64,000 bases of DNA. It comes from Rubinisphaera margarita. Its GTDB lineage: Bacteria > Planctomycetota > Planctomycetia > Planctomycetales > Planctomycetaceae. Positions 3,529 through 43,470 of the stretch are shown in pieces. The notes beneath the pieces are model-generated. The model was not told the origin of the DNA and made no database searches. It worked only from the letters and a program-made list of their open reading frames with translations. How positions within the stretch are numbered: position 1 is the stretch's first letter; each line of letters starts with the position of its first letter. The DNA is taken from positions 893,225-957,224 of the forward strand of contig NZ_JAKFGB010000012.1 in NCBI RefSeq assembly GCF_022267515.1, written 5' to 3'. The translations under genes were made by a program, and so were the position numbers.

Positions 3529-4550
3529 AATCAGCAGCCGTTGTGAATTATGCCCCCAAAAAGGGCTCCGTCGAGATCCGTGAGATCGATGTCCCCGAGA
3601 TCGGTGCAGAAGACGTTCTTCTTGAGGTCGCCAATGTCGGTGTCTGCGGCAGCGATCTGCACCAATGGACCGCCGATCATTCCTGGCCAGTCAACTATCC
3701 CGTCGTGCTTGGTCACGAATTCGGCGGGCATATCGTCAGGACGGGAGCGAATGTCGCCGGCTGGAAAGAGGGCGACCGGGTTGTCTCCGAAACAGCCGCC
3801 ATTATCAGTGCCGACAATCCGATGACCCGCCGCGGACTGTATAACTTGGATCCGACACGAAAGGGCTTCGGGTACGGCGTGAACGGCGCCATGACGAAGT
3901 ACGTCCGCGTTCCCTCTCGAATTCTTCATCACGTGCCCGACGATCTGCAGTTCGAGCAGGCCTGTCTCACCGAGCCGTGTTGTGTGGCCTACAACGCCGT
4001 GGTGAAGAACGCCAGCATCGAGCCTGGCGATCGTGTTGTTGTGCTCGGACCAGGAACAATCGGGATTCTCTGTGCCGCGATGGCCCGGTTGTGCGGTGCT
4101 CAGGTGGCTGTCGTTGGACTGCCACAGGATGCCCAACGTCTAGAGATCGCCCGACAGTACGGTTGCGATGTCATCATTGGCGATGCAACCGAATGGGCCC
4201 GCGAACGGGATGGTCTGGGCTGTGATGGGGTGATCGATGCCGCCGGAGCCAGTGCCACCTTGAAGATCGCCATCGACATCGTGCGGCCGGCCGGGTGGAT
4301 CAGCAAAGTCGGATGGGGTCCACAGCCGTTGAACTTCAATCTCGATCCCATGGTGCAGAAAAATGTCACCCTGCAGGGGAGCTTCAGTCACAACTGGCCG
4401 ATCTGGGAACGGGTTATCGCCCTGCTCGCCAGCGGCCAGCTCGATGTCCGTCCGATTATCGGCGGCGTCTGGCCGATTACCGAATGGCACGAAGCCTTCG
4501 AGAAAATGCATCACGGCGAAGTCGTCAAAGCCGTCCTCAAACCTGTCTGA
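3525..4550 (+). CDS. Zn-dependent alcohol dehydrogenase (MDR family, sorbitol/threonine dehydrogenase-like)
   Basis: Zinc and catalytic motifs VCGSDLH, GHEFGG; Rossmann motif GPGTIGIL. Confidence 0.8.
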   Translation: MKSAAVVNYAPKKGSVEIREIDVPEIGAEDVLLEVANVGVCGSDLHQWTADHSWPVNYPVVLGHEFGGHIVRTGANVAGWKEGDRVVSETAAIISADNPMTRRGLYNLDPTRKGFGYGVNGAMTKYVRVPSRILHHVPDDLQFEQACLTEPCCVAYNAVVKNASIEPGDRVVVLGPGTIGILCAAMARLCGAQVAVVGLPQDAQRLEIARQYGCDVIIGDATEWARERDGLGCDGVIDAAGASATLKIAIDIVRPAGWISKVGWGPQPLNFNLDPMVQKNVTLQGSFSHNWPIWERVIALLASGQLDVRPIIGGVWPITEWHEAFEKMHHGEVVKAVLKPV

Positions 4551-4561
4551 TTGCCTGCCTT

Positions 4562-5446
4562 ATGCCCAAGCTTGCCGCCTTCCCCAAAGCCTACATGCAG
4601 GCCCTCTGTAAAGAGGGCACGATGACCGTCTCGGAGTGGATTGACCTTGCCGCCGATCTTGATGTCGATGGCCTCGAATGGTACGCCGGCTTCCTCGAAA
4701 TGGAGGACGAGTCGAACTGGCCGAAGTTTCGCGAACAGGTTGAAGCGATCGGCAAGACCATTCCCATGATGTGCTGCTCGCCTGACTTCACTCATCCCGA
4801 CGCTTCATTTCGTGAGCGGGAGATCGAGAAGCAGAAGCGATGGATCGATATGACGCACGTCCTCGGCGGCAGCTACTGCCGCGTCCTCAGCGGACAACGA
4901 CGCCCGGAACTTTCGATCAACGAAGGCGTCGCACTAGCCGCGGCATCGATCGAGGCCTGCCTCCCCTACGCCGAAGAGAGAAACGTGACGTTGATTCTCG
5001 AGAATCATTACAAGGACGATTTCTGGGAGTACCCCGAGTTCGCCCAGAAGATGGACGTCTTCTGCCTGCTCGTCGATGCGATTCAGCATCCGAACTTCGG
5101 CGTGAACTACGATCCCAGCAACACCTACCTGGCGGGCGAAGATCCACTCGAACTGCTGAAGCGGGTCTCACATCGGGTTCTGACGATGCACGCCAGCGAT
5201 CGATACCTGATTGAAGGCACGATCGAAGATTTGCGTCGCGAAGAAGGAGGCTCAGCCGGCTACGCCAAACGCCTCCGCCACGGCGAAATCGGCCAGGGCC
5301 TCAATGACTACGATGCCATCTTCGACGAACTCCGCGGAAAGGGCTTCAACGGCTGGATCAGCATCGAAGACGGCGTGGACGGCATCGACCAGCTGAAACG
5401 GAGCGTTTCGTTTCTACGGAAGAAGATAGTCGAGCACTGGGGATAA
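4562..5446 (+). CDS. Sugar phosphate isomerase/epimerase (xylose isomerase-like TIM barrel; UlaE/SgbU-like)
   Basis: The ORF track extends upstream in a frame that overlaps the ADH gene; the first ATG after the ADH stop is at 4562 (MPKLAAF...). Xylose-isomerase-like TIM barrel residues. Confidence 0.7.
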   Translation: MPKLAAFPKAYMQALCKEGTMTVSEWIDLAADLDVDGLEWYAGFLEMEDESNWPKFREQVEAIGKTIPMMCCSPDFTHPDASFREREIEKQKRWIDMTHVLGGSYCRVLSGQRRPELSINEGVALAAASIEACLPYAEERNVTLILENHYKDDFWEYPEFAQKMDVFCLLVDAIQHPNFGVNYDPSNTYLAGEDPLELLKRVSHRVLTMHASDRYLIEGTIEDLRREEGGSAGYAKRLRHGEIGQGLNDYDAIFDELRGKGFNGWISIEDGVDGIDQLKRSVSFLRKKIVEHWG

Positions 5447-5516
5447 CCGCACCGCGGGCAACAGTCGGCACGCAGCCGAACCGTCCGAACGGGGCGGCTG
5501 GAATCGGTGTCCTTGT

Positions 5517-6191
5517 GTGGACGTATGGCCCATCAAACCTCCTGCTCAATTGGATGACAACGTGTATATCCCCTCCTCGTTTGAGGTCGACGATTCTGAA
5601 ACGCTGCATGAGTTCATTGAGCGGTACAGTTTTGCGACGTTGATCACGACGGTCGACAGTGTGCCCTTTGCCACTCACCTTCCGCTGCTTCTTGACCGGA
5701 CCGCAGGCCCGTTCGGCACACTCCATGGGCATTTTGCGAAGGCGAATCCGCACTGGAGAAGCCTCGAGCAGTCCGGCGAATCGCTGGCGATTTTTCACGG
5801 GCCGCACACCTATGTTTCGCCGCGATGGTATTCAGGGGCGAAGCCAGCTGTGCCGACCTGGAACTACGCCGTCGTCCATGCCTACGGCACGGTCACATTG
5901 CAAACCGAGCCGGCGTGGCTCGATGACTTTCTGAGGCGAATGGCGATCAAATACGAAGCCGACGCCGACCAGCCGTGGCAGAACGATCTCCCCCCGGATC
6001 TCGACGACCAGCTGAAGCAGGCGATCGTCGGATTTGAAATGACCGTTACTCGACTTGAAGGGAAGTTCAAACTCGGCCAGAATCGCTCGGATGAGGATCA
6101 GCTCGGTGTGATTGCCGGACTGGATCAGGCCGGTCTTACTGAGATGGCCACGTTCGCGAGAGAACATCTCGACGCCAATCCGGACGATTGA
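5517..6191 (+). CDS. PaiB-family FMN-binding putative transcriptional regulator
   Basis: GTG start. Length and motifs (TWNYAVVHAYG, FMN-binding split-barrel) fit the PaiB family. Confidence 0.65.
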   Translation: MDVWPIKPPAQLDDNVYIPSSFEVDDSETLHEFIERYSFATLITTVDSVPFATHLPLLLDRTAGPFGTLHGHFAKANPHWRSLEQSGESLAIFHGPHTYVSPRWYSGAKPAVPTWNYAVVHAYGTVTLQTEPAWLDDFLRRMAIKYEADADQPWQNDLPPDLDDQLKQAIVGFEMTVTRLEGKFKLGQNRSDEDQLGVIAGLDQAGLTEMATFAREHLDANPDD

Positions 6192-6255
6192 CGCCCTGTG
6201 CGGTCTGTCTTCTCGGCTGAAAACTTCGCGCTCATTTTTCCCGCGGGACACCACA

Positions 6256-37472: not shown

Positions 37473-38100
37473 GAGACCTGTGTGGGGAAGGATGCTATGC
37501 GGGAAGTCCGGCGTGCGGCAGGCTCTATATTAAGAGATTGTCGACCGATAAGCACGTCTCGATCTATCTTGAGTCTCGTTTTGTCGAGGATTCCTGTCAA
37601 GCAGGATTTCCCGCCCGGCTCGATCGAAGAGCCGAAATGGCTGATTGACGAGCGTCCGCTTTTCTGAATGCTCAACGATCAGGGTGGAACCTCCTCGAAC
37701 GACGAGGTCCCGGAGTCCCCATCGGCGATTAACGCGATTCCTCCAGAAACCTGATGTCACCCTCACCGATGTTAACGTGTGTACCAGGGTCCCCAGCGAT
37801 CCTGAGACGTTTCGCATCGGAGTCTTCCCCATCCACCGGCGAGCTTGTGGGGAGATCTGCCCGATTCCGCAGAGGTCTCCCGATCCGATCTTCATAACAT
37901 TTCCAACTGGCATGCACACTGCGGGGACTCGCCGTCACGGGCCTTAGCTAACAAGGTTCGCACACGCCAGGAAGCCGGCGGAGGTTCCGTTGCCCTGGTG
38001 TTGAGCGGACGAACGGAAGGCTTTCCGTTCTCAGCGATCTTAGTGAGACCGCGATGCCGCTCGGACAAGATTCAGAATTGCTTGAAGAAAGGAGTTGGTA

Positions 38101-38460
38101 ATGAACGCACTCTCATTCCGATTACTTAGCAGCCTGCTGGCGATCCCGCTGGCTTTCGCGTTTGTGTCGCCGGTCGAAGCTCAGGAGACGTACACCGAAG
38201 AGTACTACGACTCGTACTACGACGACGCTGACAATTACGACTACGACTACAACGACTACACCTGGAACGACTGGTGGGAAGACGATTACGAGTACGGCTA
38301 CTACGGCGATGATGACTACGCCTATGACGACGACTACTACGAAGACTACCGCGACGATGAGTACGGTTGGAACGACGACTGGTGGGAAGATGATTACGCC
38401 TACGCCGACGGGTACTACGACAACTACTACGACGGCGACACCTGGTGGGACTGGGAATAG
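38101..38460 (+). CDS. Secreted, extremely acidic Asp/Tyr/Trp-rich low-complexity protein
   Basis: AAGGAG Shine-Dalgarno sequence 7 nt before the ATG. Cleavable signal peptide (…PVEA/QE). The mature ~93 aa are almost entirely D, Y, W, E, N, G and show a two-fold ~33-aa repeat. Confidence 0.5.
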   Translation: MNALSFRLLSSLLAIPLAFAFVSPVEAQETYTEEYYDSYYDDADNYDYDYNDYTWNDWWEDDYEYGYYGDDDYAYDDDYYEDYRDDEYGWNDDWWEDDYAYADGYYDNYYDGDTWWDWE

Positions 38461-38518: not shown

Positions 38519-39649
38519 ATGCTTCTACGTAATCCAAACCTTGTGGCCGCATTCGGCCTCTCCGCCCTGCTCGCCATGCCGGTTCATGCTCAGCAGGCTC
38601 CGCGCGAGCAGAATCGTGATCGCCAGAACGAGTCGAGCCAGCAGGAATCTCGGCCCGGCGATCAGCAGAACAGCGAGCGTCAGTCCGATCGCTTCGAGAA
38701 CCAGAACCGGGAGGACCGCGACAGCGAATCCCGAACCGACGAGAACCAGAATCAGCGACAGCTGCGCAATCAGCATCGTCAAAGCGAGAACGACAATCGC
38801 CGGCAAGGCTACACCGGTCAGCGACGATCGAACTTCCGTGGCGGTGAGATTGAAGGCTGGGTCACTGTCGGCACCGACTACGACAACGACGGCGTCTACG
38901 ACTCGCTCGAAACGATCTTCCTGATCGATTTGGAGAATGCACGTCGTCAGAGTCAGGCTCGCGCTCAGGAACATCAGCGCAGCCGTAATCAGAACGGTCA
39001 GCATCAGAGTTCGAAACGCCTTCAGGTGAAAGGGACGATTCAAAGTCTCTCCCAGAAGGAGATGATGAACTCAGAGAAGCCGAAAGTTGTCGCGAAGCTG
39101 AAAACCCAGGAAGGTCGAACCGCGACCGTCTGCCTCGGTTCGCAGGACAAAGTGAACCAGCTGAATCTGCAGCAGGGTGATCAGGTCCAGGCCCACGGCG
39201 TTCGCGCCACCTTCAACGGTAAATCGATGCTGATGGCGGAACGCGTTTCGGCCGGCGAGCAGACAATCACGAACCAGCTGCCGCGAAAGCAGGGGCTCAA
39301 CCGCTTTCAGGGCGAAGTCGTGAGCACACGACAGGCGAACTTCCGGAATCGCGAAGGCGAATTCGTGATCGCCACCGTTCGCACTGAGAAGCATGGCACC
39401 AAGGAAGTGAACCTCGGACATGCCAGCGAATTTGAGAATGTCGACATCAGCGAAGGAAAGCAGATCAAATTCCTCGCCGGTGAAGCACGGATGAACGGTC
39501 GCTCGGCTCTGATTGCTCAGGCAATTCGCATCGACGGTCAGACCATCGACGTCCGCGAGTCGACCAACCAGCAGATCACTAAGTCTGATCGCGGTTCCGA
39601 CTCGAAGAACCGTCAGTCCGAGGATCGGCAGACGACAAGTCGCCGATAA
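38519..39649 (+). CDS. Secreted protein with a Q/N/R/E/S/D-rich low-complexity N-terminal region and two tandem ~90-aa OB-fold-like repeats
   Basis: AAAGGA Shine-Dalgarno sequence before the ATG at 38519. Signal peptide MLLRNPNLVAAFGLSALLAMPVHA. The two repeats share a pattern of the form V...G..V...L...G.... Confidence 0.5.
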   Translation: MLLRNPNLVAAFGLSALLAMPVHAQQAPREQNRDRQNESSQQESRPGDQQNSERQSDRFENQNREDRDSESRTDENQNQRQLRNQHRQSENDNRRQGYTGQRRSNFRGGEIEGWVTVGTDYDNDGVYDSLETIFLIDLENARRQSQARAQEHQRSRNQNGQHQSSKRLQVKGTIQSLSQKEMMNSEKPKVVAKLKTQEGRTATVCLGSQDKVNQLNLQQGDQVQAHGVRATFNGKSMLMAERVSAGEQTITNQLPRKQGLNRFQGEVVSTRQANFRNREGEFVIATVRTEKHGTKEVNLGHASEFENVDISEGKQIKFLAGEARMNGRSALIAQAIRIDGQTIDVRESTNQQITKSDRGSDSKNRQSEDRQTTSRR

Positions 39650-39678
39650 GTGATTGACCTGACGCATTAATACGATGT

Positions 39679-39713
39679 GGCGTCCGTCCTGTCCGGGGGC
39701 GGACGCCTTTTTG
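39679..39713 (+). terminator. Intrinsic terminator after the secreted-protein gene pair
   Basis: Stem GGCGTCCG / CGGACGCC followed by TTTTT. Confidence 0.65.
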
Positions 39714-39784
39714 ATGCGCAGGTCTGAGAGTTCTTTCTCACTGGGAATGTCCTGCAACCGCCGTCGTCACGATGAAACCTGGTA

Positions 39785-39826
39785 CTAATACGAAACGCCC
39801 TCGAATCGCAGAGACTCGAGGGCGTT
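39785..39826 (-). terminator. Intrinsic terminator after rsr
   Basis: Stem CGCCCTCGA / TCGAGGGCG, with a T-rich tail on the minus strand. Confidence 0.5.
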
Positions 39827-39834
39827 CGGGTTCA

Positions 39835-41472
39835 TTACAGTTCGACGGCTTCGACTTCCTTCACGAAGCGGCTTTCGTCACCGGACAGGAATCCACTCAC
39901 GACGTTGAACACGGCGTCACTGAAGCCGCCGATGTTCAGGATGTCGCTGCGTTCTGGAGCCTGTGAGGTTCCGTACGGCTGGATGTCGATGCAGACCAGC
40001 TTTGGTCCCGTGATGTCGCCACCCTGGAGTCGCAGCTGATTCTTCACGAAGTCCTGCCATTCGGTCATCACTCCGGTTGACCCGTAAGCTCCGTATCCGA
40101 AGGCCTGTCCGTTGCGGATCCAGCTTTCGTTATCGCTGATCAGCACGCATCCTGCGAAACGTCGATTACGATAACGGCTGTTGGCTTCTCGCAGCGGGAT
40201 CGAACAATCGGTCCCTCCTCCGCCCATTTGGCCGAGCCGCTTCGACAGACTCAGGATCGAATCGGACGGATCGAGCCGTGCGTCGTACGCGATGGTATCG
40301 AACGGCACGAGCACACTGTCCGGGTTTCGACGCAGGATCGCCGCAGCGAACAGAGCCGCCACATCGACACATCGCACGGCCGAAGTTCCCCCTCCACCGC
40401 GGTATCCGGTGACCGGACAGTTCATCGATCCCGAGGTATCGAGTCCGATTACGACCGGTCCCGGCAGTTCCGGGATGTTTCCGCAGGCAATCTCGGCTGC
40501 TCGGTGCAGCGCATCCCGGATCTTATGCGGCAACTCCGTCGACGCGTTCAGGTAGGCGGCCAGGTACTGGTACGGGAACTGTCGCGAACGTCGGATCTCC
40601 GTCGCATCGGCCACGCGGCCGGCCACGTAATCGACCATCTCACGATCTTCCAGAACCTGATGACGCAGGAGCGTATTCAGGTTCATTCGCAATGCCTGCG
40701 GCCCCATCTGTCGGGCGATGGCCTTCCAGACCTTCGGCCCCCGAGCGGCATCGGCCAGGAGATCCCAACGCACGTTCAGATCAGCCGCGACTGCAGCCTG
40801 ATCCTTCTCGCCGGTGATGCGTCGATACTTGATCAACTGCTTCAGGTCCTGCGGGAGATCGGCTTCGGTCGCCGGAGCCCACTTCTCGACGTCCTTATCG
40901 GTCAACCATCCGAACAGAGCCCGCCGCGCGTTGTCTCGCGGAGTTGGCCGAGCCAGCCGCAACACGTCGCGCAGACTTGGATCGTTCCCGATCGAAGCCG
41001 ACAGCAACTTGCTCACGGAAGCCTCGTTCAGCCAGCGCTGGAAAGCCCGCTGCAAACTCGACGACAGGCTGTTCCGACCAAACTGACCGGAACGGACCAT
41101 CTGGAACAGCGTCCGCAGGACGCGGCCGTTATCGATCACCCGATCAAAGACCTGGTGCATCAATGCGGTATCCCGAGTCGACAGCGAAGCCACCAGGGCA
41201 GCCGGCATGTCCTTCATGAAAGCCCGTTCCCGCGAATACACGGCGAGCTTTGCCAGGAAGACATTGTCATCGACCTCGTCGATCAGAGACCGCAAGGTAT
41301 CGAGCTGCGTCTGGGCGTTGGCGTAGAAGACTCCGTTAAAGCACCCGGTTGCAGCGAGCTGAGCGAGAGCCTGCTTGGCCGAGAACTTGTAAGCGGCGCC
41401 GCCCGCTTCGTTGATCGAGTTCGTACGCGGCAACAGATTCTTGAAGTTGGAGAAGAGGGACTTGTTGGCCAT
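39835..41472 (-). CDS. rsr: Ro60 ortholog Rsr (TROVE domain + vWA/MIDAS)
   Basis: N-terminal TROVE-region sequence typical of bacterial Rsr. C-terminal vWA with the motif IGLDTSGSM. Confidence 0.85.
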
Positions 41473-42010: not shown

Positions 42011-42211
42011 GCTATGTCTTCAAAAGTGGCTCGACGAAGAGGTGCCGAGAAGATGCGTTCTTCACGCAATCCTTAACAGGGATGTAATCCCGGCTGGCAG
42101 TCGAACCACTGGAGCAGTTCACTCTCGTAACCGTTCCGTCCGCGAAAGGAGCAGCGTTTCAGGCGAAACAAAGCTCATTCGCGGACATCCGGTAAAGCGA
42201 TCCGCTTTAAT

Positions 42212-42282
42212 ACCCCGCCAAGGAATCGAACCTCGTCCGACTGATTCGAAGTCAGTCATGCATCCATCACACCCGCAGGGCT
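42212..42282 (-). tRNA. tRNA-Arg (UCG), 71 nt, no encoded CCA
   Basis: Acceptor GCCCTGC / GCGGGGT (two G-U pairs). D-arm GTGT-GATGGAT-GCAT. Anticodon arm ACTGA-CTTCGAA-TCAGT. T-arm CGAGG-TTCGATT-CCTTG. Confidence 0.6.
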
Positions 42283-42291
42283 TGCAGAGTT

Positions 42292-42624
42292 TCAGTTTTT
42301 CGTTGTTCTCCAATACTCGTCGGCGTTCTCCAGAGCCGCCCGCATCAGACGGGATCCTTCGATGTTGGCCGAGTGAATTGTCCAGGTTAGTTGCGATAAC
42401 TCGCCGTAGTAGGCTCGTTCTTCAATCCATTTCGCGACGTCGTAACCGGTTTGCGTTGTTCCCAGATCGTGATCCAGTGACACCCAGGCGACGTTGTTCG
42501 ACTTGAGCCGACTGATCGCCGCATCTGCAGTCCTCACCCAGATCATGCCCGGTTCCGCACCGAACAGTTCCTGGATCTTCCGATTGTTCGGATCCCGCTC
42601 GTCATCGAGCCAGAGATTGATCAT
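42292..42624 (-). CDS. Small receiver (REC)-fold-like protein embedded in the tRNA array; possibly a cyclic-phosphate-processing receiver-like domain as seen in RNA-repair neighbourhoods
   Basis: AAAGGA Shine-Dalgarno sequence 5 nt before the ATG. Alternating beta/alpha pattern with acidic residues at predicted strand ends: MINLWLDDER (strand 1) and VAWVSLDHDLG (strand 3). Confidence 0.5.
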   Translation of the reverse strand: MINLWLDDERDPNNRKIQELFGAEPGMIWVRTADAAISRLKSNNVAWVSLDHDLGTTQTGYDVAKWIEERAYYGELSQLTWTIHSANIEGSRLMRAALENADEYWRTTKN

Positions 42625-42651
42625 GCAGTCCTTTCTTCAGGTCGCGAGAAA

Positions 42652-42721
42652 CACGAGCGTGAGGAGTCGAACCCCATGCGTTCGCTTTGGAGGCGAACTG
42701 CTCTCCCAGGAGCACACTCGT
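42652..42721 (-). tRNA. tRNA-Trp (CCA), 70 nt, slightly irregular (short D-loop, missing nt 9)
   Basis: Acceptor ACGAGTG / CGCTCGT. D-arm GCTC-CTGGGA-GAGC. Anticodon loop CTCCAAA is identical to bacterial tRNA-Trp. T-arm TGGGG-TTCGACT-CCTCA. Confidence 0.55.
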
Positions 42722-42725
42722 CCAA

Positions 42726-42799
42726 TGGCTTTGGTGGGATTCGAACCCACAGCATCGCTGTGTCTGAGACAACGTGGTCTACCGATTGCCTACAAAGCC
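42726..42799 (-). tRNA. tRNA-like element with a CAG anticodon loop (Leu-like) but an unpaired D-stem and no long variable arm; probable pseudo-tRNA
   Basis: Perfect acceptor GGCTTTG / CAAAGCC and T-arm GTGGG-TTCGAAT-CCCAC. Anticodon arm GTTGT-CTCAGAC-ACAGC. No D-stem pairing can be found. Confidence 0.4.
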
Positions 42800-42831
42800 G
42801 TTTCGTGCCCACTGTTGTTGAGGGACATCAG

Positions 42832-42906
42832 TTGCGGCGGCAGGAATCGAACCTGCGTCAGAACGGTTCAGAGCCGCCCGCCCGTACCAGCACGAGCACC
42901 ACCGCA
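42832..42906 (-). tRNA. tRNA-Gln (CUG), 75 nt
   Basis: Acceptor TGCGGTG / CGCCGCA. D-arm GCTC-(10 nt)-GGGC. Anticodon arm GGCGG-CTCTGAA-CCGTT. T-arm GCAGG-TTCGATT-CCTGC. Confidence 0.55.
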
Positions 42907-42918
42907 TCATCTCTTCAA

Positions 42919-42989
42919 AGCGCCCAGCGGGAGTCGAACCCGCACTCCCGCCATGGCAAGGCAGCAGGCTACCGCTACATCATGGGCGC
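42919..42989 (-). tRNA. tRNA-Gly (GCC), 71 nt
   Basis: Acceptor GCGCCCA / TGGGCGC. D-arm ATGT-AGCGGTA-GCCT (one mismatch). Anticodon arm CTGCC-TTGCCAT-GGCGG. T-arm GCGGG-TTCGACT-CCCGC. Confidence 0.55.
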
Positions 42990-43013
42990 GATTCAGAGGC
43001 TTCGCCTCCTGAA

Positions 43014-43086
43014 TGGGATCGGACGGATTCGAACCGTCACCGTTCCGGTTAAGAGCCGGACATGCCGCCGCTAACACCTCAATCCC
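43014..43086 (-). tRNA. tRNA-Lys (CUU), 73 nt
   Basis: Acceptor GGGATTG / CGATCCC. D-arm GTGT-TAGCGGCG-GCAT. Anticodon arm TCCGG-CTCTTAA-CCGGA. T-arm GACGG-TTCGAAT-CCGTC. Confidence 0.65.
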
Positions 43087-43110
43087 AGGTTGACCTTCTT
43101 CGTAATAAAG

Positions 43111-43183
43111 TCGGGATGGCCGGACTCGAACCGACGATCGCGTGCTCCCAGGGCACGTGGGGTAGCCGCTCCCCGACATCCCG
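43111..43183 (-). tRNA. tRNA-Pro (UGG), 73 nt (C at position 33)
   Basis: Acceptor CGGGATG / CATCCCG. D-arm GGGG-AGCGGCTA-CCCC. Anticodon arm CGTGC-CCTGGGA-GCACG. T-arm GTCGG-TTCGAGT-CCGGC. Confidence 0.6.
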
Positions 43184-43397
43184 TTAACTGCTTTCACTTA
43201 ATGGAGCTGTAAACTCCGAGTAACTCTCGATCGAAAGCGGTTGAGTTCTTTGCTGAGTGCCTGCCGGCATTAGCCTGTCCGCGTTCGATCGGAGCCGGGC
43301 GGAATGCATGTCCGAAGAAGGCGAAGAAACGTCGATACGAATTGCGGATGAAGGTTGTCACGGTCGTCGATTCCGAAATGGGCTGACTGTTTACTGA

Positions 43398-43470
43398 TGA
43401 CCCGTGTGGGATTCGAACCCAACCTGACCAGCTTGAAAGGCTGGTGACCTCACCAGAAGTCGAACGGGCC
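43398..43470 (-). tRNA. tRNA-Glu (UUC), 73 nt
   Basis: Acceptor GGCCCGT / ACGGGTC. D-arm GACT-TCTGGTGA-GGTC. Anticodon arm CCAGC-CTTTCAA-GCTGG. T-arm TTGGG-TTCGAAT-CCCAC. Confidence 0.65.

Follow-up and report, generated by a model that had tools for sequence, protein, structure and literature searches.

Secreted or luminal proteins of extreme acidity, such as calsequestrin, the Asp-rich shell-matrix proteins and statherin, bind Ca2+ or take part in biomineralization, and systems in which a folded partner works with a secreted protein that is acidic, disordered and either binds cations or acts as a scaffold are known in general terms. We analysed a 64,000-nucleotide stretch of the Rubinisphaera margarita genome (the window; contig NZ_JAKFGB010000012.1, forward-strand positions 893,225–957,224) and describe a conserved two-gene module within it. 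The upstream gene (38101–38460, + strand) encodes a small protein with a predicted signal peptide and a mature chain rich in Asp, Tyr and Trp, and the downstream gene (38519–39649, + strand) encodes a secreted, basic partner with a D-x-D-x-D-G loop and two OB-folds. What is not known from described systems is this composition together with an obligatory pairing to a DxDxDG, tandem OB-fold protein. The first-pass annotation of the window had singled out the small protein and missed the module, which is the most informative fact about it.

The small protein shares with calsequestrin, shell-matrix proteins and statherin an extreme content of Asp and Glu, a secreted or luminal location, likely disorder and a Ca2+-type loop in an associated protein, but it has no homology to them, lacks (Asp-X)n alternation and comes from a host in which no mineral is known. 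To our knowledge, none of these proteins combines approximately 37% Tyr and Trp with approximately 40% Asp and Glu. Low-complexity domains of the FUS type carry aromatic 'stickers' separated by spacers and interact with Arg-rich regions through a Tyr–Arg grammar. The evenly dispersed Tyr and Trp of the small protein and the 17 Arg and 0 Lys of the partner's disordered region recall this arrangement, although FUS-type domains belong to the eukaryotic cytoplasm or nucleus and their Gly/Ser/Gln spacers carry no charge, whereas the spacers here are Asp and Glu and the setting is the bacterial envelope. The binding that we propose for the small protein would resemble that of SSB-type tails (E. coli SSB ...DDDIPF; T7 gp2.5), which are acidic and aromatic and occupy OB-fold grooves. 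According to the account of Marintcheva 2008 given in PMC10359462, the acidic tail of T7 gp2.5 competes with single-stranded DNA for the protein's own OB-fold. These tails are cytoplasmic, approximately 10–25 residues long, act in cis and concern DNA, whereas here a separate 92-residue secreted protein stands beside a secreted OB-fold protein that has 11–18% sequence identity to SSBs. The partner in turn resembles the bacterial OB-fold (BOF) proteins YgiW, YdeI and SipA, which are likewise secreted and have charged ligands; SipA, a periplasmic member of the YgiW family, binds peptides directly (PMC6370654). BOF proteins differ in being single-domain and in having cationic known ligands, and BOF (YgiW/YdeI) models gave no match to the partner in Pfam at E ≤ 10 or in NCBIfam at E ≤ 1, so that the fold class alone is in common. 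We know of no dedicated acidic partner gene for BOF proteins.

The association between the small gene and its partner was found from both sides. A search with the partner, made without reference to the small gene, returned four distant homologues (P0003–P0006; 28–36% identity), and on each of their contigs (L004–L007) an acidic, aromatic open reading frame (ORF) either lay directly upstream on the same strand or was fused to the partner. The separate ORFs lie at positions 2–271 of L004, 3–254 of L005 and 1920–2354 of L006; on L007, the partner carries the acidic aromatic region as an N-terminal fusion, and a secreted multi-EF-hand protein is encoded directly upstream. A profile of these small proteins, searched independently of the partner, retrieved 31 proteins of 64–276 residues, all of them 'hypothetical' and, except for a marginal PF13347 match in P0035, without a Pfam domain. 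For three of these homologues, chosen for their long contigs (L008, L009/10 and L011–13), a partner homologue lies immediately downstream in each and matches the window partner with blastp E values of 4e-48 to 8e-53. Over the downstream genes of L004–L009 and L011, E values against the window partner ranged from 7e-24 to 4e-54. Fusions of the small protein and the partner were found in P0006, in P0028 and in the 335-residue WP_008703757 of Rhodopirellula maiorica ('signal peptide protein'), a cluster mate of one of the small-protein homologues, and in these fusions the acidic region stands in place of the partner's N-terminal disordered region. Because the partner-first and small-protein-first searches agree, the association is reciprocal, and it held in every locus read; the rest of the neighbourhood differs between loci. 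When metagenomes were scanned with the partner alignment, the only two loci recovered had already been found.

From P0007 and P0009–P0038 we defined a family in the Planctomycetia whose members have an N-terminal signal peptide, approximately 100–145 residues, at least approximately 20% Asp and Glu and at least approximately 19% Tyr, Trp and Phe. One member is FYK55_07470 of Roseiconus nitratireducens. Many others come from short metagenomic contigs and some are fragments, and three named genera, together with metagenome-assembled genomes (MAGs), make up the known taxonomic range. The typical layout is a signal peptide, the motif [DE]YEWDPxxGYHEEEWYDPSDWFD, an Asp/Tyr-rich low-complexity stretch and the motif WYGDNYYTxDWYDDEPDFDxWYD; as conserved motifs of the family we used EEEWYDPSDWFD near the N terminus and WYGDNYYTxDWYDDEPDFDxWYD near the C terminus. 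A second subtype (TPYYEDDAWYDVSEWFDGNDYNPTDE...) is the form that is usually fused. Across the family, composition is conserved more than residue order. The window protein has the signal peptide, length, composition and net charge of the family, and its gene lies directly upstream of 38519–39649 on the same strand with a gap of 58 nucleotides.

Individual loci show additions of their own. On L004 (Logan contig SRR33375166_629896), positions 434–739 encode an extra secreted, Gly/Tyr/Asn-rich, near-uncharged protein (GYGYNANPYQYDGGGYGYGYD...NWTAWW) between the acidic ORF and the OB-fold partner, which makes this locus a three-gene variant of the module. The flanks of L006, L007 and L011–L013 have in common genes for YetF_N/DUF421, an AI-2E-family transporter, a CAP-domain protein, MgtC, PAP2 and a CLIPPER/CARDB-like protein; this perhaps reflects lineage synteny and not function, because none of these genes lies near the module in the window. 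On L002, an insertion of approximately 1.1 kb (5287–6247, compared with 39650–39834 in the window) between the partner and the TROVE gene contains two small ORFs and a gene for a protein with a Macro domain; neither the window nor MAG ih15 has this insertion.

Comparison with close relatives indicates that 38101–38460 is very probably a genuine secreted-protein gene within a conserved module. Orthologues of 119 codons lie at the same place in all three related loci: L001 (Planctomycetaceae MAG ih15, CP051247.1; 9583–9942), found by a genome scan with the downstream neighbour, and L002 (JGI contig; 3583–3942) and L003 (Logan contig), both reached via the record of that neighbour's 91%-identical homologue. 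The L001 and L002 proteins are 95% identical to the window protein; we count the closely related window, ih15 and L002 loci as a single lineage. The first-pass annotation had asked whether related genomes might fail to preserve the ORF or might conserve only another reading of the DNA, and we found instead that this frame is under purifying selection in two related genomes. Between the window and ih15, 20 of 360 nucleotides differ, 14 of them at third codon positions, with six amino-acid changes. The ratio of nonsynonymous to synonymous substitution rates (dN/dS, Nei–Gojobori) is 0.13, compared with 0.09–0.10 for the partner, 0.08 for the TROVE gene and 0.06–0.07 for the PSCyt gene, and the intergenic DNA on either side of the small gene is far more diverged. 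Four of the five alternative frames have dN/dS above 1, and the −1 frame, at approximately 0.27, contains 20 stop codons; on these grounds the other frames and the opposite strand were rejected as the true coding frame. A spurious ORF, produced incidentally by a simple DNA repeat rich in GAC and TAC or by a gene in another frame or strand, might have been suspected from the low complexity of the sequence, the further long ORFs of the +2 frame and the minus strand, and the absence of the protein from large collections. The substitution pattern and the fate of the other frames speak against this, as do the conservation of the ribosome-binding site, ATG and signal peptide, the equivalent secreted proteins at the same position in distant genomes, and the gene calls already present at this position on the JGI and Logan contigs. 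Judged by these comparative data, the spurious-ORF explanation is effectively refuted, and we give it almost no weight.

The gene has clear translational signals. A Shine–Dalgarno (SD) sequence, AAAGGAG (38088–38094, + strand), read directly, lies 6 nucleotides 5′ of the ATG at 38101, and the block that contains it (GAAGAAAGGAGTTGGTAATG) is unchanged in the orthologous locus of ih15 despite the diverged spacer around it. The in-frame TTG at 38095 was rejected as a start because the SD sequence abuts it. The 119-codon frame ends with TAG at 38458–38460. Inspection of the translation by eye identified a positive n-region, a hydrophobic core, a V-x-A cleavage site and no lipobox Cys in the N terminus (MNALSFRLLSSLLAIPLAFAFVSPVEA, followed by QE), which thus looks like a classical Sec-type signal peptide of 27 residues (38101–38181), with cleavage predicted between VEA and QE. 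The strong SD sequence and signal peptide described in the first-pass annotation were thus borne out by sequence and translation, and, on its question whether homologues conserve the signal peptide, a hydrophobic N-terminal segment precedes the acidic region in all aligned family members. Codon usage is skewed towards NNC, with TAC for 24 of 25 Tyr (96%) and GAC for 22 of 28 Asp (79%), compared with 58% TAC and 45% GAC in nine further window genes. This skew and the strong SD sequence suggest that the small gene is strongly expressed.

The predicted mature chain of approximately 92 residues (38182–38457; net charge −36) is, as the first-pass annotation had put it for approximately 93 residues, made almost only of D, Y, W, E, N and G, and the peptide quoted there matches exactly. 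Residues 29–119 comprise 28 D, 25 Y, 9 E, 9 W, 5 N, 5 G, 4 T, 4 A, 1 S and 1 R. Asp makes up 31% of the mature chain, Tyr 27%, and Trp and Glu 10% each, with 37 acidic residues and one basic residue; approximately 40% Asp and Glu thus stand together with approximately 37% Tyr and Trp. For the whole 119-residue protein, the values are 32% Asp and Glu and 31% Tyr, Trp and Phe, and no other stretch of the 64-kb window has such a composition. We consider this composition, with its dispersed aromatic residues, unusual for any secreted protein.

A two-fold repeat runs through the mature chain. The self-alignment of the protein scored above all 300 of 300 composition-preserving shuffles (z = 3.2), so the repeat reported earlier is real, but its period is 36 residues (108 nucleotides) and not approximately 33. 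WWEDDY recurs at residues 58 and 94. At the DNA level, copy 1 (NDWWEDDYEYGYYGDDDYAYDD; 38267–38331, + strand), the reference copy of the repeat search, is followed 108 nucleotides later by copy 2 (DDWWEDDYAYADGYYDNYYDGD; 38375–38439, + strand), which is 71% identical to it, and a third, partial copy (TWWDWE) closes the protein. Aromatic residues are dispersed, with no run longer than two (P ~0.01 compared with shuffles). The pattern is one of YY and DD blocks with a period of approximately 4–5; a search for Asp-X or Tyr-X alternation of the β-type in the small protein found none. Pairs at lag 2 are depleted (z = −2.0 for acid–acid and −1.3 for aromatic–aromatic), and adjacency of acidic and aromatic residues at lag 1 is the same as in shuffles. 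In a charge–hydropathy plot, the small protein lies deep inside the disordered region.

Upstream of the small gene, a leader of approximately 145 nucleotides (37955–38100, + strand) is much better kept in comparisons with ih15 and L002 than the remainder of the 630-nucleotide spacer. RNAalifold, run on three sequences only, gave four hairpins with four compensatory pairs, and we tentatively regard the leader as conserved and possibly structured. Its last predicted helix would pair UGCCGCUC (approximately 38055–38062) with the SD region and may thus serve to control translation. Neither the leader nor the operon had a match in Rfam (E ≤ 1). A terminator-like hairpin (39679–39707, + strand; 12-bp stem with 9 GC pairs, followed by a T-run) lies 3′ of the partner gene, and the interval between the two genes showed no such site. 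The pair therefore probably forms a two-gene operon.

The partner gene (38519–39649, + strand) encodes a protein of 376 residues that consists, in order, of a signal peptide, an Arg/Gln-rich disordered region, a DYDNDG loop, a linker, OB-fold 1, OB-fold 2 and a basic tail. The isoelectric point of the partner is 9.7, with a net charge of +8, and those of its homologues are 8.9–10.1, except for L004 (7.9). The charge of the small proteins across the family is opposite, at −21 to −40. The region after the signal peptide is an 87-residue polyampholyte in which the 17 Arg are joined by 16 Gln, and Arg clearly outnumbers Lys in the disordered region of most partner homologues. The DYDNDG loop (residues 120–125; 38876–38893, + strand) occupies the invariant alignment columns D120, Y121, D122, N123, D124 and G125 and is kept in 10 of 10 partner homologues, in the context GWVxV-DYDNDGxYDxxE. 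With further acidic residues at positions 9 and 12 (DYDNDGVYDSLE), it has the form of a D-x-D-x-D-G loop. A canonical EF-hand (PROSITE PS00018) is a helix–loop–helix with Ile, Leu or Val at loop position 8. We assign the partner's loop to the DxDxDG class and not to true EF-hands because position 8 is Tyr or Phe, AlphaFold2 (AF2) places short strands and not helices beside the loop, and the partner has no EF-hand match in Pfam. The DYDNDG sequence thus resembles a Ca2+-binding loop of the DxDxDG type.

The two OB-fold domains (residues 167–251, 39017–39271; residues 260–344, 39296–39550; both + strand) match each other by blastp, the second being an internal duplicate of the first. AF2 predicted two confident β-barrels at these residues, with a predicted local distance difference test (pLDDT) score of approximately 90. 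The alignments behind the AF2 models in this study were shallow (6 and 15 sequences). The partner is thus predicted to have an OB-fold-like β-barrel in an extracytoplasmic protein. Most partner homologues carry precomputed hits to PF26390 (MamS_MamX), graded only 'weak' or 'faint', and comparison of the partner profile with the Protein Data Bank (PDB) gave noise only. Several homologues have an added C-terminal PDZ domain of the HtrA/MamE type. The partner itself has a single Cys, no CXXCH motif and no membrane anchor.

The small protein is covered by no described family, and its own family is undescribed. Sequence searches of Pfam, NCBIfam and the PDB with the small protein and family members returned no match, in keeping with the first-pass annotation, which had recognized no described family in the composition. 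No match to the small protein was found in a single-sequence search of a word-indexed library of 5.8 billion proteins or in an exhaustive phmmer search of 1.84 billion representative proteins. Exact look-ups in a collection of 15 billion proteins found neither the window protein, with ATG or TTG start, nor its ih15 and L002 orthologues. The silence of the large libraries reflects a gap in the libraries and not uniqueness, because these 95%-identical orthologues are missing there yet are recovered by phmmer locally at E ~1e-64. The partner, by contrast, is present in the collection, as a protein 100% identical to a hypothetical protein of Rubinisphaera margarita. Since a neighbour from the same NCBI genome is present, the small ORF may be unannotated in deposited genomes, and public protein sets may systematically lose secreted proteins of extreme low complexity, or such proteins may never be annotated there. 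Searches of the literature turned up no relevant description of an equivalent to the small protein.

The reading that we favour, with confidence somewhat short of even, is that the small protein is a disordered polyanionic ligand of its partner and a binder of Ca2+ or other divalent cations, with a buffering or scaffolding role in the envelope. The protein would be intrinsically disordered, as its charge–hydropathy position, the unstructured acidic region of the fusion P0006 (pLDDT 35–45 in AF2) and the conservation of composition over sequence suggest. In the periplasm or cell envelope it would be a physical ligand of the partner, its carboxylates pairing with the partner's Arg and Lys and its Tyr and Trp contributing stacking or cation–π contacts to the faces of the OB-folds and to the Arg-rich tail. 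Classical signs of physical or functional coupling in genomes are gene fusion and invariant adjacency, and we propose binding because of these two signs and the precedents of SSB tails and SipA; direct interaction is the part that we consider reasonably probable. The approximately 37 carboxylates would bind Ca2+ or other divalent cations with high capacity and low affinity, and this binding would act with the partner's DxDxDG loop to tune the complex. Cation binding, one of the roles suggested in the first-pass annotation, would be compatible with the genomic context, namely the invariant DxDxDG-type loop of the partner and the EF-hand protein at L007. That the purpose is divalent-cation buffering or scaffolding, in the envelope of marine or saline planctomycetes, is a plausible but tentative suggestion.

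Several observations weigh against this reading and against the place of the window protein in the family. In a family hidden Markov model built without it, the window protein scored above 979 of 1,000 composition-matched shuffles, and thus 21 of 1,000 shuffles scored as well. Its pairwise Smith–Waterman z scores against other members are 0.7–2.5, compared with 3–8.5 among those members themselves (except 1.1 for L004a and L007N), and only degenerate counterparts of the family motifs could be located in it (TEEYYDSYYDD, which would match EEEWYDPSDWFD, and DDYAYADGYYDNYYDGDTWWD, which would match DNYYTDDWYDDEPDFDNWYD). Homology to the WYDPSDWF-type members thus rests mainly on synteny with a clearly homologous partner, because in residue order the window protein is only marginally closer to the family than its composition would predict. 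AF2 did not dock the acidic region of P0006 on the OB-folds, although the low confidence and shallow multiple-sequence alignment make this weak evidence. The net charges of small protein and partner are uncorrelated across pairs, a local Pfam-A scan of the partner matched no family even at E ≤ 10 (the local copy may lack PF26390), and the small protein has no (Asp-X)n β-type alternation of the kind proposed for mineral-binding proteins. Expression, export, Ca2+ binding and partner binding of the small protein are all predictions. We nevertheless read the window protein as a fast-evolving, composition-constrained orthologue whose motifs have degenerated, and as the divergent Rubinisphaera representative of the family.

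A bolder extension of the favoured reading, which we regard as unlikely, is that a polyanion with nucleic-acid-like chemistry (carboxylates in place of phosphates, Tyr and Trp in place of bases) would load the partner's tandem SSB-like OB-folds and Arg-rich tail, forming in the periplasm or at the surface a polyelectrolyte complex or condensate, switchable by Ca2+, that could serve as a cation reservoir, protective matrix or mineral scaffold. If true, this would be a protein-only analogue, outside the cytoplasm, of SSB–single-stranded-DNA or polyphosphate–protein assemblies, and a previously unknown kind of envelope system.

Other explanations share parts of this evidence. Extreme Asp content is typical of biomineralization proteins, and the polyanion might nucleate or cap Fe, Mn or Ca minerals on the envelope or stalk, with the OB-fold partner, with or without PDZ, acting as MamS, MamX and MamE/P do in magnetosome crystal maturation. 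The magnetosome system offers several likenesses: PF26390 hits on most partner homologues, a predicted YgiW-like OB-fold that faces the extracytoplasmic space, PDZ domains of the HtrA/MamE type on some partners, and acidic proteins (MamJ and Mms6) within the same system. MamS and MamX are predicted to be YgiW-like OB-folds, and deletion of MamS alters crystal size (PMC3905215). However, the PF26390 matches are graded weak or faint and did not reappear with the local copy of Pfam, the partner lacks both the CXXCH magnetochrome motif and a membrane anchor, no magnetosome genes or gene cluster lie in any neighbourhood read, and the small protein has no lag-2 Asp alternation and is unrelated in sequence to MamJ and Mms6. 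The host is not magnetotactic, and we know of no biomineralization in Rubinisphaera. Mineral control therefore seems improbable, and the binding of minerals or metal oxides suggested in the first-pass annotation would have the partner's weak or faint MamS_MamX matches as its one line of evidence. About equally doubtful is a role as a dedicated chaperone or 'pro-region in trans', in which the polyanion would shield a basic, Arg-rich, aggregation-prone partner until it reaches its target, and the true function would lie in the partner, for example in binding an envelope polyanion or peptide. Strict adjacency, the fusions, the opposite charges of the two proteins and the replacement of the partner's N-terminal disordered region by the acidic region in fusions would all suit such a solubilizer or inhibitor. 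So would contact between the small protein's tail and PDZ domains: long C-terminal EEYNE-type tails occur in two of three small proteins with a PDZ-bearing partner and in none of four without, which hints at direct contact in a sample too small to count as evidence. This explanation overlaps largely with that of a polyanionic ligand, from which it differs in purpose only, and the codon optimization and strong SD sequence of the small gene suggest instead production in excess, as a product in its own right.

The aromatic residues invite two further proposals. Planctomycetes attach via holdfasts, and a chain with 27% Tyr and 10% Trp could contribute to holdfast, stalk or surface material through oxidation of Tyr to 3,4-dihydroxyphenylalanine (DOPA) or dityrosine, or through aromatic stacking; the extra Gly/Tyr/Asn-rich secreted protein of L004 recalls structural proteins. 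We consider an adhesive or cross-linked matrix quite improbable: no conserved tyrosinase, peroxidase or laccase lies near the gene in the loci read, a net charge of −36 is unlike that of known Lys/Gly-rich DOPA adhesives, and the dispersal of aromatic residues argues for solubility over assembly. Tyr flanked by Asp or Glu resembles tyrosine-sulfation sites, and nearly every Tyr of the small protein is so flanked, so that its richness in Tyr and Trp might also suggest a poly-sulfotyrosine protein or a Tyr/Trp-crosslinked, ribosomally synthesized and post-translationally modified peptide (RiPP), a precursor role raised in the first-pass annotation. The N terminus has the features of a Sec signal peptide and not of a RiPP leader, and the window and L002–L013 contain no conserved radical-SAM enzyme, P450, BURP-like enzyme, sulfotransferase, protease or exporter beside the gene, the OB-fold protein being the sole conserved neighbour. 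A modified-peptide precursor is accordingly disfavoured, to the point that we give it very little credence.

The module lies in the window among genes for PSCyt/DUF1553, DUF1501, TROVE and sugar-metabolism proteins. Just upstream of a bacterial Ro60/TROVE–vWA homologue (39835–41472, − strand), and on the same strand, is an array of eight transfer RNA (tRNA) genes (42211–43470; Arg-tcg, Trp, Leu-cag, Gln-ctg, Gly-gcc, Lys-ctt, Pro-tgg and Glu-ttc), with rather low Rfam scores of 42–53 bits. The same array lies in the same order beside the TROVE gene in ih15 (L001 13923–16926), and the link is perhaps meaningful because bacterial Ro60 loci carry tRNA-like Y RNAs. On the other side of the module, positions 37480–37590 form a block that is nearly identical to ih15 within diverged spacer and adjoins a divergent PSCyt1/DUF1549/DUF1553 gene (start 37472, − strand). 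It is probably the promoter or 5′ untranslated region of that gene; in ih15, an ORF listed from the first ATG, GTG or TTG past a stop runs through this block from a GTG start.

Planctomycetes encode a large number of secreted proteins annotated as 'hypothetical', and little is understood of their envelope biology. The odd ORF of the first-pass annotation is now part of a defined, conserved two-gene module with natural fusions, which spans at least the Planctomycetaceae (Rubinisphaera) and the Pirellulaceae (Roseiconus and Rhodopirellula). The absence of the small proteins from large collections implies that such genes are systematically under-counted. The DxDxDG loop and two OB-folds give rise to testable hypotheses about binding, Ca2+ dependence and phase behaviour, and the small protein offers a compact test case for disordered polyanions beyond the bacterial cytoplasm. 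If the link to MamS and MamX were true, the module would show the role of a magnetosome domain in non-magnetotactic bacteria.

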